From NCBI GenBank assembly GCA_048625195.1, contig JBMCRE010000005.1:1-60520 (forward strand): a DNA stretch of 60,520 nucleotides. The letters are read 5' to 3'. The position numbers and the translations under genes were made by a program. Positions 1-49,195 of this stretch are shown here, in pieces (the first letter of the stretch is position 1; each line of letters starts with the position of its first letter). Source of the stretch: Nanobdellota archaeon (GTDB lineage: Archaea; Nanobdellota; Nanobdellia; Woesearchaeales; UBA583). Below the pieces are notes generated by a model, which made no database searches, was not told the origin of the DNA, and saw nothing but the letters and a program-made list of their open reading frames with translations.

Positions 1-248
1 AATTTCTCTTTAGTTTTTAAATACATATGTATTTCTAGACCTATTTTTATTTTTCCCATAAAATACTAAAGTGTAAATAATTTATATATCTTGTGATTGA
101 ATAATTACACTATTTTATCTTTTAGATAGTTTTTATAAATATTTATTATTGGATTTATTAGATATTATATATTATTTATAATATGCTACAAGTAAAAAAG
201 TTAAAAAAAATTCAACAGATATTTAAATAATTAAATATTAAATATTGT

Positions 249-1637
249 ATGTCTAAAATTGAAAAATATTTTAAAAAAATTGATGAACAAACAAATTTTG
301 CATATCAAGCTGCTAAGTCCTCAAAATTAAAAGGTTTTGACAATAGTTTATGTGTTGAAATAGGTATTACTAAAGATATTTCTCAAAGAGTTGAAACACT
401 TGTTAGTATTCTTGCTCCACAAGTTTTAGACTCTAGTATTGCAAAAAGAGTTATAGAGTTAGAAAAAAAATATGGAAAACTCGACTGGAGAATTGCTTTT
501 GAAATTGGATATGAAGTTGCAACTGAAAAATTTTGTAAATTTAAAGATAAAAAAGAAGCTATGGAAATTGGAATTCGAATTGGTTTTGCTTATTTAACTT
601 TAGGTGTTGTTTCTGCTCCTATTGAAGGTTTTATTAATTTAGACATTAAAAAAAGATTTGACAATCAAGAATATATTGCTATAAATTACGCAGGACCAAT
701 TAGAGCTGCAGGAGGAACTGCCGGAGCTGTTAGTGTATTATTATGTGATTTTATCAGAAATAAAATGGGATATGCCAATTATGATCCTAACATTCAAGAA
801 CTTAAGAGATATTTTATTGAAATCAAAGATTATAATGATAGGTGTGTAAAATTACAATATATGCCTACTCAAAAAGAAATTGAGTTTTTAATTAAAAATA
901 TTGGTGTTGAAATATCTGGTGAATCAACTGAAAAAACTGAAGTATCAAATTACAAAGATTTAGATAGGGTTAATACAAATAGAATAAGGGGGGGAATGTG
1001 TTTAATTGTGGCAGAGTGTATCATTCAAAAAGCTCCTAAAATTTATAAAAGAATTAATGAATGGGGTAGTGATTTTTCAATGCAAAAATGGTTATTTTTA
1101 AAAGATTTTCTAAATTTGCAAAAAAAAATAAAGTCAGAATCCAATAATTCTTTAAATATAAATACTTTAGAGAAATTTAATAAAATATTACCTAATTACA
1201 ATATATTAAAAGATGTTATTGCAGGTAGGCCAGTTTTTTCATTTCCGATGAAAAAAGGAGGGTTTAGATTAAGGTATGGGAGAAATAGAGTTTCTGGATT
1301 TGCATCATCGAGTATTTCTAGTGCAACTTATGAAATTTTAGATAACTTTATAGGAGTTGGAACTCAACTTAGAATTGAAAGACCTGGAAAATCTACAATT
1401 ATAACGCCTTGTGATACTATAGAAGGACCAATTGTTAAATTGAAAAATGATGATGTTGTAAAACTTAATAAAAAAGATGATGCTATAAAATTAAAATCTG
1501 AAATAAAAGAAATCTTACATCTTGGTGATATTTTGCTTAATTATGGTGATTTTTATGAAAATAATCATATTCTTGTTCCAAATGGTTATTGTGAAGAAGA
1601 ATGGGTTTTAGAATTACTTAATAATATTAATAATTAA
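249..1637 (+). CDS. polD2: DNA polymerase D large subunit DP2, N-terminal portion only (462 aa; split or truncated)
   Basis: DP2 motifs GVVSAPIEG, YAGPIRAAGGTA, RIRGGMCL, GRPVFS, GFRLRYGR, GTQLRIERPGK, LGDILLNYGDFYENNH, GYCEEEW. It stops at about 40% of normal DP2 length, with no continuation in other frames. Confidence 0.9.
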   Translation: MSKIEKYFKKIDEQTNFAYQAAKSSKLKGFDNSLCVEIGITKDISQRVETLVSILAPQVLDSSIAKRVIELEKKYGKLDWRIAFEIGYEVATEKFCKFKDKKEAMEIGIRIGFAYLTLGVVSAPIEGFINLDIKKRFDNQEYIAINYAGPIRAAGGTAGAVSVLLCDFIRNKMGYANYDPNIQELKRYFIEIKDYNDRCVKLQYMPTQKEIEFLIKNIGVEISGESTEKTEVSNYKDLDRVNTNRIRGGMCLIVAECIIQKAPKIYKRINEWGSDFSMQKWLFLKDFLNLQKKIKSESNNSLNINTLEKFNKILPNYNILKDVIAGRPVFSFPMKKGGFRLRYGRNRVSGFASSSISSATYEILDNFIGVGTQLRIERPGKSTIITPCDTIEGPIVKLKNDDVVKLNKKDDAIKLKSEIKEILHLGDILLNYGDFYENNHILVPNGYCEEEWVLELLNNINN

Positions 1638-1644
1638 ATCCATG

Positions 1645-1827
1645 TTAAATATCTTTTGCATTGTCTATAGAAATTTGACTAACATTATTCATAACTTCTG
1701 AATTAGGCAAATAATGATTTAAAAAAAAAAATATCATAAATAATAAAACAATTATTGCTATAATATATGTAATTATTTTTGTTAATGTTAATTCGACACC
1801 TTTTTTATTATTTATAATATAGTTCAT
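1645..1827 (-). CDS. small pilin-like protein with archaeal class III signal peptide
   Basis: Basic N-terminus NNKKG|VELTL followed by a long hydrophobic helix, typical of archaeal prepilins. Confidence 0.6.
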   Translation of the reverse strand: MNYIINNKKGVELTLTKIITYIIAIIVLLFMIFFFLNHYLPNSEVMNNVSQISIDNAKDI

Positions 1828-10701: not shown

Positions 10702-11367
10702 TTATTTATATCTTCTTATCTCATTTCCGTCTAATATGCATTGATGTAATTCTACTGGTCTCCATTCATCTTCAATGAGTATTGCATTTAACCACTTGGC
10801 TATTTCCTTAGCATTTCCAATAGTTGCACTTAATCCTATTAATCTGATTTTTGGATATTTTGATTTAAAGATGCTAAGTAAGACTTCAAGTGTGGGTCCT
10901 CTTTTTTCATCATTTAATAAATGTATTTCGTCTGCAATTACTAAACCTAAATTGTCAAGAATATTTTTGTTATGTCGAATAATCGAGTCTAGTTTTTCTG
11001 TAGTAACTATTAATATGTCATAGTTATAATTGTATTTTTCTGTTTGTAATTCTCCAACAGATAATCTGATTTTAAATCTCTCCGAGTAGTTGTTACGAAA
11101 TTCTTGAAATTTCTCAGAAGCTAGAGCTTTGAGAGGTACGATGTATATAACTTTCTTGTTTTTATTAAGTAAGCAATTGAGCATTGCAAGTTCTGCAATT
11201 AAAGTTTTACCAGACGCTGTTGGAGCAGAAATTACTTGATTTTTATTATTTTCAAAGAGGCCTTTTTCAATAGATTTAATTTGTATTGGTCTAAAACCGA
11301 TGCTATTATATTTTTGAAGAAAGATTTGAATGTTTGAGGGGATTTTGTCTGAAATTATTTTATTCAT
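10702..11367 (-). CDS. hel308: Hel308/Ski2-like SF2 helicase, N-terminal RecA-like domain only (221 aa; split or truncated)
   Basis: Q motif (FRPIQ), APTASGKT, VPLKALASEK, TTEKLDS, DEIH, LSATIGN, WRPVEL, then stop; helicase domain 2 is absent. Confidence 0.85.
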   Translation of the reverse strand: MNKIISDKIPSNIQIFLQKYNSIGFRPIQIKSIEKGLFENNKNQVISAPTASGKTLIAELAMLNCLLNKNKKVIYIVPLKALASEKFQEFRNNYSERFKIRLSVGELQTEKYNYNYDILIVTTEKLDSIIRHNKNILDNLGLVIADEIHLLNDEKRGPTLEVLLSIFKSKYPKIRLIGLSATIGNAKEIAKWLNAILIEDEWRPVELHQCILDGNEIRRYK

Positions 11368-19121: not shown

Positions 19122-20822
19122 ATGAAAAAAGAAAAAATTGTGGATTTCTTGAAGAAAAATAAAATTGAAGTAAAAGGAAAAATAAATTTTCAATCAAAAG
19201 AAGAAAAAATACAATTTTTAAATAATTTTTATCAGATTATTAAAAATAATGTTTATATAAATCTGATTAATGAAGATATTAAAAATATTATTGTAAAAAT
19301 AAAAATAAACAAAAAAAATCTAGAAATATTAAAACAAATAAATTGGGAGTTTTATTGTAATTTTATTTTAGAAGATAAAACTAATAAATATATTAAAAAA
19401 AAGTATGAATCCTTTATTGAATTTTTAGAAGAAGCATTGGAAATTAAAACTAATAAGTTGTTTATTTATAAAAGTAATTTTAATGTTAATCAGGATTTAA
19501 ATGAAAAAATTAAAAAATATAATGTTGAGATTGTTTCTAACTACAATCAAGAAGGTAAAAAATATAGTATTCAAGATTTTATTTTATATTTTAATAAAAG
19601 ATTAGAATATTTTTCAAATATTTTAATAAAACAAGTTAATCAAAACAATATTATTAGAATTTCTAATTTGAAAGATTTAAATAATACGAATGAAGAAGTT
19701 ACAATTATAGGGCTGATTAGTGAAATCAAGTATACTCAAAGTAATCATTTAATGATTACATTAGATGATAAAAGTGGACAAATAAAGTGTTTTATAAATA
19801 AAAATAAATTATTTTCTTCTTCTAAACAATATGACAAAAATCTAAAATTAATTGTAGATAATTTATGTCTTGATGAAGGGATTGCAATGATTGGAAAAAT
19901 TGGTAATAATATCATTTGGACTGATAATATTATTAGCGTGCGACCTTTTAAAAAGAAACAAATAAAAAAAACTCAAGAAGATAATTTTATTGTGTGCACT
20001 TCTGATATACATAGTAGCTCTAAAAAGTTTAATGAAGAATCTTTTTTGAAGTTTGTTGATTTTATTAGAGGAAAAACTAAAAGTAAAAAATTAAATAATA
20101 TTGCAAAAAAAATTAAATATATTTTTATAACTGGTGATATTATTGAAGGTATTGGTATTTATCCTACTCAAGAGATTGATTCAACATTAATGAGTGGAAT
20201 ACTTCAATATAAAAGAATTGCTAAAATTTTAGATAAAATTCCAAAGGATATTTGTATTGTTTTAATATCAGGGAATCATGATGCAAATAGATTATCTGAA
20301 CCACAGTTAAGTTTACCTTATGATATTGCATATCCTTTATATAATTTAGAAAATTTAATTTGTTTGAGTAATCCGAGTATATTAAATGTTTTTAATTATA
20401 ATTTGAATTCTAAATTAAAATTTCATCTTTATCATGGAGCTAGTTTATTTTATTATGCAGATAATATCAAATATTTAAGAGAAATGGGAGGGGTCAAAGT
20501 ATCTTTAGAAATATTAAAATATTTATTGGAGAAAAAACACCTTGCAATTTCTCACGGAAGTGTTCCATACATTCCTGATTATAAAGAAGACGCACTTATT
20601 ATAAAGGATTTACCTGATTTTTTCTTAGTTGGACACAGTCATAAATTAAGTGTGGAAAATTATAAAGGATGTACACTAGTTAGTGGAGGATGCTGGGTAG
20701 AGATGTCAGATTATCAAGAAAGAGTTGATATTGTTCCTGATGTTGGGAAATGCGTTTTAATTAATACTAAAAATAGAAAAACTCATATACTTAATTTTAA
20801 TAATAAAGATGATAAAAAATAA
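19122..20822 (+). CDS. polD1: DNA polymerase D small subunit DP1 (proofreading exonuclease)
   Basis: OB fold (VTIIGLISEI...LDDKSGQIK) and phosphoesterase motifs SDIH, GDIIEGIGIYP, GNHD, YHG, GHSH. Confidence 0.9.
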   Translation: MKKEKIVDFLKKNKIEVKGKINFQSKEEKIQFLNNFYQIIKNNVYINLINEDIKNIIVKIKINKKNLEILKQINWEFYCNFILEDKTNKYIKKKYESFIEFLEEALEIKTNKLFIYKSNFNVNQDLNEKIKKYNVEIVSNYNQEGKKYSIQDFILYFNKRLEYFSNILIKQVNQNNIIRISNLKDLNNTNEEVTIIGLISEIKYTQSNHLMITLDDKSGQIKCFINKNKLFSSSKQYDKNLKLIVDNLCLDEGIAMIGKIGNNIIWTDNIISVRPFKKKQIKKTQEDNFIVCTSDIHSSSKKFNEESFLKFVDFIRGKTKSKKLNNIAKKIKYIFITGDIIEGIGIYPTQEIDSTLMSGILQYKRIAKILDKIPKDICIVLISGNHDANRLSEPQLSLPYDIAYPLYNLENLICLSNPSILNVFNYNLNSKLKFHLYHGASLFYYADNIKYLREMGGVKVSLEILKYLLEKKHLAISHGSVPYIPDYKEDALIIKDLPDFFLVGHSHKLSVENYKGCTLVSGGCWVEMSDYQERVDIVPDVGKCVLINTKNRKTHILNFNNKDDKK

Positions 20823-21342
20823 TATTAAAAAGAGTGGTAAAAAAATTATTGTGAATGATTTAATGCAAAAAAATTATGTTTATTATTTAACAGAACCAAT
20901 TGGTAAAAATTTTGATGAGAATTTTGAACCTGATTTAAGTCCTAAAGAGATGTTAGAATTAGGAGTTTTTGGGGGGAAATATATGACTGATTGTATTGAT
21001 GAATTTCCTAAATCTTGGTTTGAAAATGCAAAATTGTGTTCAAAAAAATATGATGTGAATTTAAATTATTTTAAAGTAAAAGCCTCACAATCTTTAAAGG
21101 TATGGAGAGAAAAGGGATGGATATATCATGAAGACCCTAGAGGATGGTTTCAGTGGTATTGTAGATATTATATGGGTAGAAGAATTCCTAATGAAGATAT
21201 TAGACAAATAAAAAGATTTAATGCTTTTACTAAAAGACATATTGGAGCAATTAAAAAAAATTGTTTTGCATTTGAATTAAATTGTAGAAAAAAACAAAGA
21301 CAAGCAGTTTTACATTGGGCAATTGATAGTCGAAAAATATAA
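20809..21342 (+). CDS. conserved hypothetical protein (LSPKEMLELGVFGG / DPRGWFQWYCRYY family)
   Basis: Distinctive Trp/Tyr-rich motifs of a widespread uncharacterised family; overlaps the DP1 stop by 14 nt. Confidence 0.75.
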   Translation: MIKNNIKKSGKKIIVNDLMQKNYVYYLTEPIGKNFDENFEPDLSPKEMLELGVFGGKYMTDCIDEFPKSWFENAKLCSKKYDVNLNYFKVKASQSLKVWREKGWIYHEDPRGWFQWYCRYYMGRRIPNEDIRQIKRFNAFTKRHIGAIKKNCFAFELNCRKKQRQAVLHWAIDSRKI

Positions 21343-46891: not shown

Positions 46892-49195
46892 TTAGAAAAA
46901 GTTATCTAATCTTGTTTGTTTTTTCATCAGAATAACATTGTCAAAATCTATTCCTAAACTTTCAAGTAAGTCATCACTTACACCTTTTAGTTGTTTTTCA
47001 ATGTAGTGTTCATAATCGTATTTGAAATTGTCTGAAATTAAAGATATATGTTTTGGACCTTTTTCTCCCATTACATATTTTACAGTTCTTCTATTAAAAT
47101 TTTTTAATTCTCTTGCTGCTTTTACATGAGGAGGAGTTGTCTTAGTATATTGATTTAAAGGTTTGGTGATTTTTTTTGTATAAACTAATTTGTCATCAAA
47201 TTTTCCTGATTTTAGTTTTTGAATGTAATTTAATATGTATTTTTCTATTTCTTCTCTTTTTTTATTAGAAAAAATAAGATTTACTAGGTTTATTTGAAAA
47301 CTCCTTGCTAATTGTGTCCAATCTCCCCTTATTGCTTCCATTCCTACGAATTGTATTTTGTTTTTCAATATATCTCTTCCTACATATCTTTTTTTAGATG
47401 CTATAAAAAATTTGTCATAGATTTTTTCTAATTCAATGTTTAAAAAATTTTTAATTTGATATTCTTTATCTATCCAGTCATTAAAATGTTTATTTAATTC
47501 TTTTTCTAGTTGATATCCTGCTTTTTTTAGTGAATCTAAATCAGTTTTTTTTAAATTAGGAATTTTAACAAAAATCGAATCAGTATCTCCGTAAATTACT
47601 TTATTAGATTTATTTGCATATTTTTCTGCCTTTTTAGTTACATGTCTTGCAAATCCAGTTATTGCACCTGCTATTTCACTATTATAAAATCTTGATTTTG
47701 GAGATGCTATTGCCCCCCAAAAAGAGTTCATTGTAGTTTTAAGAGCATAGCTTTTAATATCATCTTTTTGAGATTTCGCAATATCTCTTTCTTTATAAAT
47801 TTGATAAATTAAAGTTGGAAGAATTCCTTTTTGTTTTACAAATTTAGCTCCATTTGGTGCTTGAATTGTTCCATTATTTGGATTATATGTATATGGATCA
47901 ATATTAAAAGTCATTATTATTGATGGATAAAGAGATTTAAAATCAAAAACGAATATATTTTCATAAAAACCTTGTTTAGGATCAATAACATAAGCTCCTT
48001 CTAATTGACTTGTGTCTTTAAAATTATTATTTGTAGGTGCAACTATTTTTTGTTTATGTAATTCTTTTAAATATAATAAGTCTAGAGATGCTATTGGTGA
48101 TTTTACTTTCATTAATGGAGTATTTGTTATTATTGATCTTTGCATTATTAACTCAAGTAAACCGAGTTTTTCTGTAATCTTAGTTGTCAATTCTGAATCT
48201 TTAAAGTTGTATTCGATTAATTTTTGAGGATCTTGTGTTGATAGTTTTTGAATTGTATTTATTTTTTCTTCAAATGTTTCATCTGGATTTAAATCTAATT
48301 GTATTTTTTCGTCTTTTAAAACCTCTTTTGCAACTGTATTTAATTTGTAATCGTCAAAAATTATATAATTTGCTTTTAATAAATGAATTACATCAAATAC
48401 TAATACTCCTGGAATGTGTAGAGAACTATTTGTAAAAAAATCTTTATTAATTCTAAGCTTGTTTTCACCTTGAAATTGAGAAAATTTGAAATCTAAATTA
48501 TAATATTTCATTCTATCTCTTATAATATTAAAATCAAAATCTATGACGTTCCACCCCAAAATTACTTGTACTTCACTTTTAATTATATCATCTTTAAATA
48601 CCTGTAATAGCTCTTGTTCATCTTTTAATTGTATTATAGAATAATTTTTAGGAGTATCTTTTAATTTGTTGTGAGCTATTTTATCTTTGTTTATATAAAC
48701 CTTATTAAAAGATTTATTTTGATTAGAGTGAGTACTTATCATTATAATCTCTTGATTTTCATAATCTCCAACTGTCTCAATATCAAATGAAATATATTTT
48801 AGTTTGGGAATTTGATTTGATTTATTTGAAAAGATGTCTACATCATAATCTATTAAATATCTATGTTCTGGATTTAAATCATCTTCATAAGTGTCAAAAT
48901 TTAGTTCTTTTATTTGTTTTTTTAAATAATCGTATATTTCTTTGTTGAAAATTGTTAATCTTAATACTTCTTCTTCATTTTTGTTATAAAAACACTCTTC
49001 TGATAGAATAATTTTGTCACTTTCAACCTTTAAAGAATCAAAATCATTTTTTTTTAAAAAGATTTGATATGGGATGTGAACTCTATTTAGGTGAGTTTTA
49101 GAAAAAGTATCTAATGAATATATTTCTAATTGAATGTTATTTTCTTTTTCTTTTTTAATTATTTGAAAAATAAAATTATTTCTATAATTATTCAT
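46892..49195 (-). CDS. polB: family B DNA polymerase (Pol II-like)
   Basis: Exonuclease FDIET and GWNVIDFD; polymerase FDFKSLYPSII, KTTMNSFWG, YGDTDS, KKRY; TPPHVKAAR. Confidence 0.92.
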   Translation of the reverse strand: MNNYRNNFIFQIIKKEKENNIQLEIYSLDTFSKTHLNRVHIPYQIFLKKNDFDSLKVESDKIILSEECFYNKNEEEVLRLTIFNKEIYDYLKKQIKELNFDTYEDDLNPEHRYLIDYDVDIFSNKSNQIPKLKYISFDIETVGDYENQEIIMISTHSNQNKSFNKVYINKDKIAHNKLKDTPKNYSIIQLKDEQELLQVFKDDIIKSEVQVILGWNVIDFDFNIIRDRMKYYNLDFKFSQFQGENKLRINKDFFTNSSLHIPGVLVFDVIHLLKANYIIFDDYKLNTVAKEVLKDEKIQLDLNPDETFEEKINTIQKLSTQDPQKLIEYNFKDSELTTKITEKLGLLELIMQRSIITNTPLMKVKSPIASLDLLYLKELHKQKIVAPTNNNFKDTSQLEGAYVIDPKQGFYENIFVFDFKSLYPSIIMTFNIDPYTYNPNNGTIQAPNGAKFVKQKGILPTLIYQIYKERDIAKSQKDDIKSYALKTTMNSFWGAIASPKSRFYNSEIAGAITGFARHVTKKAEKYANKSNKVIYGDTDSIFVKIPNLKKTDLDSLKKAGYQLEKELNKHFNDWIDKEYQIKNFLNIELEKIYDKFFIASKKRYVGRDILKNKIQFVGMEAIRGDWTQLARSFQINLVNLIFSNKKREEIEKYILNYIQKLKSGKFDDKLVYTKKITKPLNQYTKTTPPHVKAARELKNFNRRTVKYVMGEKGPKHISLISDNFKYDYEHYIEKQLKGVSDDLLESLGIDFDNVILMKKQTRLDNFF

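Follow-up and report, generated by a model that had tools for sequence, protein, structure and literature searches.

The catalytic subunit of DNA polymerase D is encoded in two dispersed pieces, probably through an ancient gene fission, in one clade of Woesearchaeales

DNA polymerase D (PolD) is the essential replicase of most archaea. To our knowledge no other DNA polymerase shares the two-barrel core of RNA polymerases, and we know of descriptions of its catalytic large subunit, DP2, only as a single chain of more than 1,000 amino acids (aa). A stretch of DNA from a Nanobdellota archaeon of the order Woesearchaeales (contig JBMCRE010000005.1, 60,520 nucleotides; hereafter the window) carries close to its start an open reading frame (ORF), here called DP2-N, that matches only the N-terminal part of DP2 and then stops. 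This raises the question of whether the genome encodes a complete DP2 at all, and if so, where the remainder lies and how the pieces could still make a polymerase. The genome holding the window is referred to as G000 (a metagenome-assembled genome, MAG, of 838 kb in 23 contigs), the window contig as C5, and two other G000 contigs as C2 and C11; coordinates of the features are collected in Table 1.

The first-pass annotation of the window had called DP2-N a stand-alone N-terminal fragment, and domain searches bear this out. The DP2 N-terminal domain of Pfam (PF03833) is matched (residues 6-288, 8.4e-84), and the match to the DP2 central domain (PF24844) stops mid-profile, covering positions 6-153 of 372 only, before the protein ends in ...YCEEEWVLELLNNINN at a stop codon. 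Against the NCBIfam model TIGR00354, for which the equivalog cut-off is 702 bits, DP2-N covers positions 2-436 of 1096 with 479.5 bits (~480), and it aligns with residues 6-469 of Pyrococcus abyssi DP2. The annotation had seen no DP2-like continuation past the stop in any frame, and no further DP2-like sequence was found anywhere in the window. A continuation would have no room downstream, because the stop codon of a convergent ORF lies 7 nucleotides (nt) past that of DP2-N; the annotation had put the gap at 8 nt.

The missing half is encoded elsewhere in the same genome, as the first of the annotation's two readings had proposed. A whole-genome search of G000 returned exactly two DP2 matches, DP2-N on C5 and a second at G000:C11:4108-6444, which covers TIGR00354 positions 449-1088 and at 585.6 bits is likewise under the cut-off. 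This match lies in a complete ORF with its own ATG, here called DP2-C. It contains PF24844 positions 156-366 of 372 and the catalytic domain (PF24846) at positions 6-299 of 299 (2.3e-110), and it aligns with residues 513-1197 of Thermococcus kodakarensis DP2, including the catalytic NCDGDE motif and the C-terminal zinc (Zn) finger. At DP2-C residues 564-571, NLDGDENG stands opposite NCDGDEDA of T. kodakarensis, and its two invariant aspartates correspond to D956 and D958 of P. abyssi. A CxxC...CxxC motif at residues 734-753 aligns to the C-terminal (Zn-III/DP1-binding) domain of 6knb_B. Since the PF24844 matches of the two pieces meet at profile positions 153-157/156, nothing is missing between them and nothing is duplicated. 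A complete central domain, with the first double-psi beta-barrel (DPBB-1), is obtained only from DP2-N and DP2-C jointly; neither piece exceeds 1,000 aa or reaches 702 bits, and unsplit relatives score 1,170-1,330 bits.

The same arrangement is found in every close relative of G000. The clade comprises 20 genomes (G000 and 19 others, 0.5-1.8 Mb in size, the closed CP060218.1 and OZ242164.1 among them as Woesearchaeota/Nanoarchaeota MAGs) and corresponds to one GTDB genus within Woesearchaeales, the only genus sampled from its family. In 19/19 of the others DP2 is in two pieces, with the TIGR00354 break at profile positions ~434-448. Both pieces were detected in every clade genome at least 82% complete, including both closed chromosomes, and only G003, 71% complete, had no detected N piece. 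At the loci that were fetched, the pieces are ORFs that lie inside their contigs and close with a stop codon. On the two closed chromosomes the pieces are far apart, at 337,791 vs 855,759 (518 kb) and at 313,929 vs 426,085 (112 kb).

The new termini are as conserved as the break itself. All clade N pieces end in ...YCEEEWALELIEKINNK(K), also written ...EEEWALELIEKINNK, directly before the stop, and almost all C pieces begin MD[FY]NxL...ILENPFxNIP. When the clade was aligned with 32 unsplit relatives (MAFFT), the break came at the same residue throughout, between ...LEKAxVN and xFGSLDxxKLSEL..., with zero residues lost. The clade N pieces share only 50-64% protein identity with DP2-N of G000, which indicates that the fission is old. 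In a maximum-likelihood tree of DP2 the split sequences form one clade (Shimodaira-Hasegawa-like approximate likelihood ratio test, 100), so that a single change accounts for them: the split arose once. Public metagenomes, in a protein search limited by length to stand-alone N pieces, add at least 85 further 90%-identity clusters of such pieces (454-517 aa, 55-66% identity), on contigs of up to 1.5 Mb.

To place the break in the fold, we used an AlphaFold2 model of an unsplit relative, L006 (mean predicted local distance difference test, pLDDT, 82.1; predicted template-modelling score 0.81), which superposes on P. abyssi PolD (8ppt_B) with a template-modelling score of 0.88. In P. abyssi the central domain of DP2 spans residues 308-667; DPBB-1 consists of β7-9, one disordered strand, β13 and β18, and is interleaved with a seven-stranded sheet (β10-12 and β14-17) and a four-helix insert, and a large interface joins the N-terminal and catalytic domains (PMC4996933). 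In the L006 model the break lies between residues 459 and 460, in a four-residue turn between helices 443-458 and 463-470. By alignment and model secondary structure, the N piece holds the N-terminal domain, five of the six DPBB-1 strands, β10-12 and the first helix of the insert. The C piece holds the remaining helices, β14-17, the sixth DPBB-1 strand (β18), the loop connecting the two barrels, the second barrel (DPBB-2), the Zn modules and the DP1-binding C-terminal domain. By this prediction the cut falls inside the insertion of DPBB-1, at no domain boundary, leaving two sheets, one barrel and a helical bundle to be completed across chains. From these shared elements, together with the N-terminal/catalytic interface, we infer an obligate, tightly interdigitated heterodimer.

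Collectively, these data make it very probable that the DP2 gene underwent an ancient fission, now fixed, in one genus- or family-level clade of Woesearchaeales (DPANN), and that the enzyme would work with an obligate, non-covalent two-chain DP2. In such an event the helix-helix turn would have been exchanged for a stop codon and a start codon, with no residues lost and no intein gained. The ancestral DP1-DP2 operon would have dissolved afterwards; the genes for PolD are now three and dispersed. The two DP2 chains would be translated separately and associate non-covalently, through helix packing, completion of the shared β-sheet and of the DPBB-1 barrel, and the interface between the N-terminal and catalytic domains, and the N and C chains with DP1 would rebuild an active PolD. 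Its basic barrel residues and its catalytic aspartates would then sit on different polypeptides, as they do in RNA polymerase β/β′.

Several observations weigh against this interpretation. The region around the break is tightly packed and folded with confidence in the model (pLDDT ~92), with no clean domain boundary, so it cannot be assumed in advance that the chains assemble efficiently in trans. The two DP2 genes are at different loci with no shared regulation seen, and the neighbours of the N piece are not conserved across the clade. DP2-C of G000 lacks the C-terminal PCNA-interacting protein (PIP) box that is kept by 16/18 of the other clade C pieces and by nearly all unsplit relatives; the box is also absent in the sister genome G013, and in G015 the contig stops before its site. 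Finally, the G000 MAG is 87% complete, but both closed clade genomes show the same split.

One alternative is that the pieces have sub-functionalised, with DP2-C and DP1 forming a minimal polymerase and DP2-N serving as a separate DNA-binding or regulatory factor. The genes are dispersed, and each has a start codon and probably a promoter to itself; this would suit such a division, as would the fact that DP2 region 1-300 has been crystallised as a separate domain (3o59) and reported to bind DNA. DP2-N, however, reaches well past that domain and carries five of the six DPBB-1 strands along with the basic active-site motif, a motif absent from the C piece, which has only the last of these strands. 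The P. abyssi residues K386, R389 and K392, to which the motif corresponds, have been proposed to bind DNA in the active site (PMC4996933), and the motif, Q[LM][KR]xERPGK, is present in 18/19 clade N pieces; NLDGDE is present in all clade C pieces. Both pieces have held on to columns that do not vary among 29 unsplit relatives (183/204 by G000; N 75/80, C 108/124), and every clade genome at least 82% complete has the two of them. Since barrel 1 is incomplete on either chain, separate functions are unlikely, and we regard this alternative as improbable.

Another possibility is that the two chains are joined covalently, by a split intein in the manner of Nanoarchaeum equitans PolB or by a process resembling RNA trans-splicing. 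A DPANN archaeon is already known to have a split-intein polymerase, and DP2 of relatives does contain inteins, at other sites (profile position ~847-852 in G032, G053 and G345). A split intein would call for an N-intein of ~100 aa starting at Cys/Ser and a C-intein of ~35 aa ending in His-Asn, followed by Cys/Ser/Thr. The clade N piece stops 4-8 residues past the last DP2-homologous helix, no extra residues open the C piece, and the alignment runs without gaps over the break, so neither intein half would have room. Pfam found no Hint/intein domain in either DP2-N or DP2-C, in agreement with the annotation, which had seen no split-intein half. We therefore rejected a split intein, for want of spare residues at either terminus and of a Hint domain. 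Joining at the RNA level was rejected as well, since the longest complementary word between the 3′ flank of the N piece and the 5′ flank of the C piece is 11 nt, a length reached by 38/300 shuffles. Covalent joining in any form thus appears very unlikely.

The first-pass annotation had also considered a recent loss of PolD, with PolB taking over replication; DP2-N would then be a decaying pseudogene. A family B polymerase does exist in the window, and the NCBI pipeline names the clade N pieces "hypothetical protein" (proteins P0019, P0023, P0033, P0034, P0036, P0041 and P0080), where JGI labels them "DNA polymerase II large subunit". In the closest clade pairs, however, the N piece has a ratio of nonsynonymous to synonymous substitution rates (dN/dS, method NG86) of 0.02-0.13 and the C piece one of 0.12-0.20, indicating that both are kept by purifying selection, and the N fragment, whose selection the annotation had wished to see examined, is not under relaxed constraint. 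The N piece is an intact ORF in 19 species at ~50-64% identity, and both DP1 and the catalytic half have been retained in conserved form, with all catalytic motifs. Conservation along the split DP2 parallels that of the unsplit enzymes, with no dip near the break; neither relaxed selection, nor sporadic distribution, nor motif loss was found. The idea of PolD loss consequently fails and has very little probability left, and PolB is not needed to explain the split DP2.

That the break is an assembly or binning artefact, such as a chimeric join near position 1640 or a frameshift, has a negligible probability: G000 is a MAG in 23 contigs and other apparent splits in the order were of this kind (see below), but the same break with the same conserved new termini recurs in 19 independent assemblies from different studies, two closed chromosomes included, which excludes a misassembly, and the DP2-N stop is followed by an unrelated convergent gene while the C piece opens with a conserved Met-Asp.

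Fission of DP2 in two dispersed genes appears confined to this clade among the genomes surveyed, which comprised 401 Woesearchaeales genomes from 136 families (33 genomes with at least two matches were re-examined) plus a 149-genome sample of the phylum. In the ~400 genomes of the 136 other families of the order DP2 is a single gene of ~1,180 aa, and no true dispersed split was found outside the clade among these or in the phylum sample. The remaining apparent splits were contig ends, a run of N, an in-frame intein or insert, a probable frameshift, or an adjacent two-ORF case cut elsewhere. We rejected G088, G125, G135 and G410 as contig ends; took G087, G119, G128, G134 and G195 as contig ends too, their matches beginning at the first contig bases; rejected G148 for a run of N at the site; and set aside G242 as a probable frameshift with overlapping frames and G021 as an unsplit gene truncated by its contig.

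Two other cases were cut at different places. In G357 (L157, G357:C4, 1350-5209) adjacent DP2 ORFs of 917 and 363 aa are separated by 14 nt, with the cut at profile position ~725; what divides this pair is a frameshift error or else a recent fission into neighbouring genes, and G143, from the same genus, has one frame. In G032, the first ~105 DP2 residues are found in a mid-contig frame of 129 aa (G032:C12:41738-42079), and the rest of DP2, from profile position ~89 and with an intein, in a frame of 1,566 aa (G032:C7:3774-8456). DP2 is unsplit in G232 of the same genus, and G032 may be a case in which DP2 was divided differently, in another family of Woesearchaeales.

The exact cut site of the clade is also a site of insertion elsewhere. 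Three unsplit families have in-frame inserts of 68-88 aa there (G052, L055; G143, L165; G144, L166), which indicates that the turn tolerates changes in length and is a hotspot for them. G052 is the closest unsplit sequence to the split clade in the DP2 tree.

The genomic setting of the polymerase genes has changed along with DP2. The annotation had described DP1 in the window as intact, and its domain content bears this out (Table 1). In unsplit Woesearchaeales DP1 lies directly upstream of DP2 in 30/30 families; in the split clade 0/18 N loci and 0/18 C loci have DP1 within 1.5 kb. In G000, cdc6 is absent upstream of DP1, and a 177-aa ORF (window 20809-21342, + strand) overlaps the DP1 stop by 14 nt, occupying the slot that DP2 has in all unsplit relatives. 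Synteny gave no guide to which DP2 piece had stayed in place, as neither is near DP1 and the only conserved neighbour is a small HxsD-like ORF.

This HxsD-like ORF (80-90 aa; NF038315 at 44-55 bits, cut-off 41) immediately precedes DP2-C in 14/18 clade genomes, its stop and the DP2-C start often overlapping. Where the gene is present in unsplit families it is 4-87 kb from DP2 and never adjacent, and in the sub-clade of G004, G014 and G019 it is absent and DP2 is still split. In bacteria, HxsD is the small protein that partners a radical S-adenosylmethionine enzyme (PMC13128918). An AlphaFold2 model of the HxsD-like protein (pLDDT 87.6) had no PDB match with E<0.07 and no informative fold match. 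One could imagine a dedicated partner that helps DP2-C to locate or retain the N piece, perhaps by β-sheet augmentation, which would make split PolD a four-gene enzyme, a heteromeric two-barrel polymerase with an assembly factor; we consider this speculative and rather unlikely.

Table 1. Features of the split PolD and of other genes in the window and on two further contigs of G000 (positions without a contig label are those of the window)
Feature	Position	Strand	Description
TATA-box-like element TTTAAATA	222..229	+	~20 nt 5′ of the DP2-N ATG, read from sequence
DP2-N	249..1637	+	N-terminal piece of PolD large subunit, 462 aa; N-terminal domain and first ~40% of central domain, including most of DPBB-1
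QLRIERPGK codons	1365..1391	+	conserved basic motif of DPBB-1; P. abyssi K386/R389/K392 by alignment
Fission point	1587..1637	+	new C-terminus of DP2-N: last helix YCEEEWVLELL, short Asn/Lys tail, TAA stop
Convergent ORF	1645..1827	-	60 aa
Hel308-type helicase, DEAD-domain piece	10702-11367	-	221 aa
DP1	19122..20822	+	PolD small (exonuclease) subunit, intact by domains: OB fold, calcineurin-like phosphoesterase (Metallophos), DNA_pol_E_B
PolB	46892-49195	-	family B DNA polymerase, 767 aa; exonuclease and polymerase domains; beside ParA-like gene
HxsD-like small protein (NF038315)	G000:C11:3709-3978	+	directly upstream of DP2-C
DP2-C	G000:C11:4024-6468		own ATG, complete 814-aa ORF; rest of central domain, full catalytic domain, Zn-finger C-terminal domain
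Hel308-type helicase, remainder	G000:C2:53299-54993	-	565 aa; Helicase_C, HTH_61, archaeal helicase domain 4, HhH

Other features of the window can be dealt with briefly. The TATA-like element is a possible promoter of DP2-N's own, which would give a leaderless or short-leader mRNA, though the signal is weak, the region being very AT-rich and such words common. The convergent ORF, which the annotation had called a pilin gene, is at most a putative pilin: it has a hydrophobic N-terminus resembling a class-III signal, but its sole Pfam match is a weak one to DUF6097, below the cut-off. Among the other clade genomes, only G008 also has it as a neighbour of DP2-N. The Hel308-type helicase of G000 is also divided between two contigs, and together with the split DP2 this suggests a lineage-wide tendency to gene fission.

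How far does split DP2 depart from known enzymes? With canonical DP2 (P. abyssi and T. kodakarensis; PDB 5IJL, 6HMS, 8PPT, 6KNB) it shares the order of domains, from the N-terminal domain through the central domain with DPBB-1, DPBB-2 with its two aspartates, Zn-I and the Zn-III/DP1-binding domain, and the presence of DP1. It differs in being encoded as 462 + 814 aa by distant genes, with both products below the family cut-off and the DP1-DP2 operon dissolved. G000 further departs from it in having other sequence in place of the Zn-II region and in lacking the C-terminal PIP box. Compared with its homologues in the clade, DP2-C of G000 has ~55-60 aa more; additional residues (~262-358) follow Zn-I, where the relatives have the Zn-II finger, and it ends ...GRDEKNDEDNLK, without QKxLxxFF.

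Among polymerases, the PolB of Methanothermobacter thermautotrophicus is encoded by two genes without an intein (Kelman et al. 1999, cited in PMC4104785). There too an archaeal replicative-type catalytic subunit consists of two separately encoded, intein-free, conserved pieces, with a non-covalent complex presumed or shown. The folds are unrelated (PolB against the two-barrel PolD), however, and assembly is a biochemical result there, whereas here we infer it.

The genes described as split in N. equitans (Waters 2003; Choi 2006; reviewed in PMC6349945) include PolB with a split intein, reverse gyrase, a Hel308-like helicase and alanyl-tRNA synthetase. N. equitans is likewise a DPANN lineage with several information-processing genes in dispersed pieces, and Hel308 of G000 is cut like its "large helicase-related protein". 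DP2, on the other hand, is not among the split genes given for N. equitans in the literature consulted; its PolB is re-joined by a split intein, of which the clade DP2 has none; and its splits occur in few, very reduced genomes, in contrast to a DP2 split fixed across a broad clade.

A third parallel is RNA polymerase, in which the basic barrel (DPBB-B, equivalent to DPBB-1) and the aspartate barrel (DPBB-A, equivalent to DPBB-2) are also on different chains, β/β′ (Rpo2/Rpo1), in the same N-to-C order. There each chain has a whole barrel; here the cut is inside DPBB-1 and its sixth strand would come from the barrel-2 chain. The split state of DP2, moreover, is derived by fission and not ancestral. 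Split replication genes in DPANN (N. equitans), split PolB (Methanothermobacter) and split RNA polymerase subunits are thus already known. A split DP2 was not reported in the literature searched, on PolD structure, PolB/PolD evolution, DPANN reviews and Nanobdellota genomes, with subscription journals mostly outside the scope of the search.

These findings indicate that the DP2 backbone can be cut in its central domain, within the DPBB-1 insertion, and still be maintained, and that the basic barrel motif and the catalytic aspartates can occupy separate chains, as in RNA polymerase. They also indicate that the DP1-DP2 operon, otherwise universal in Woesearchaeales, can dissolve completely. The split enzyme can serve as a template from nature for designing split PolD constructs and as a system in which to study how interdigitated folds assemble in trans. 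Because both pieces are under the NCBIfam cut-off and NCBI names the N pieces as hypothetical proteins, automated surveys of these DPANN genomes could count PolD as absent or incomplete. Taken together with the split Hel308, the divided DP2 shows that fission of replication genes in the style of Nanoarchaeum also reaches a lineage of Woesearchaeales that is non-thermophilic and widely distributed.

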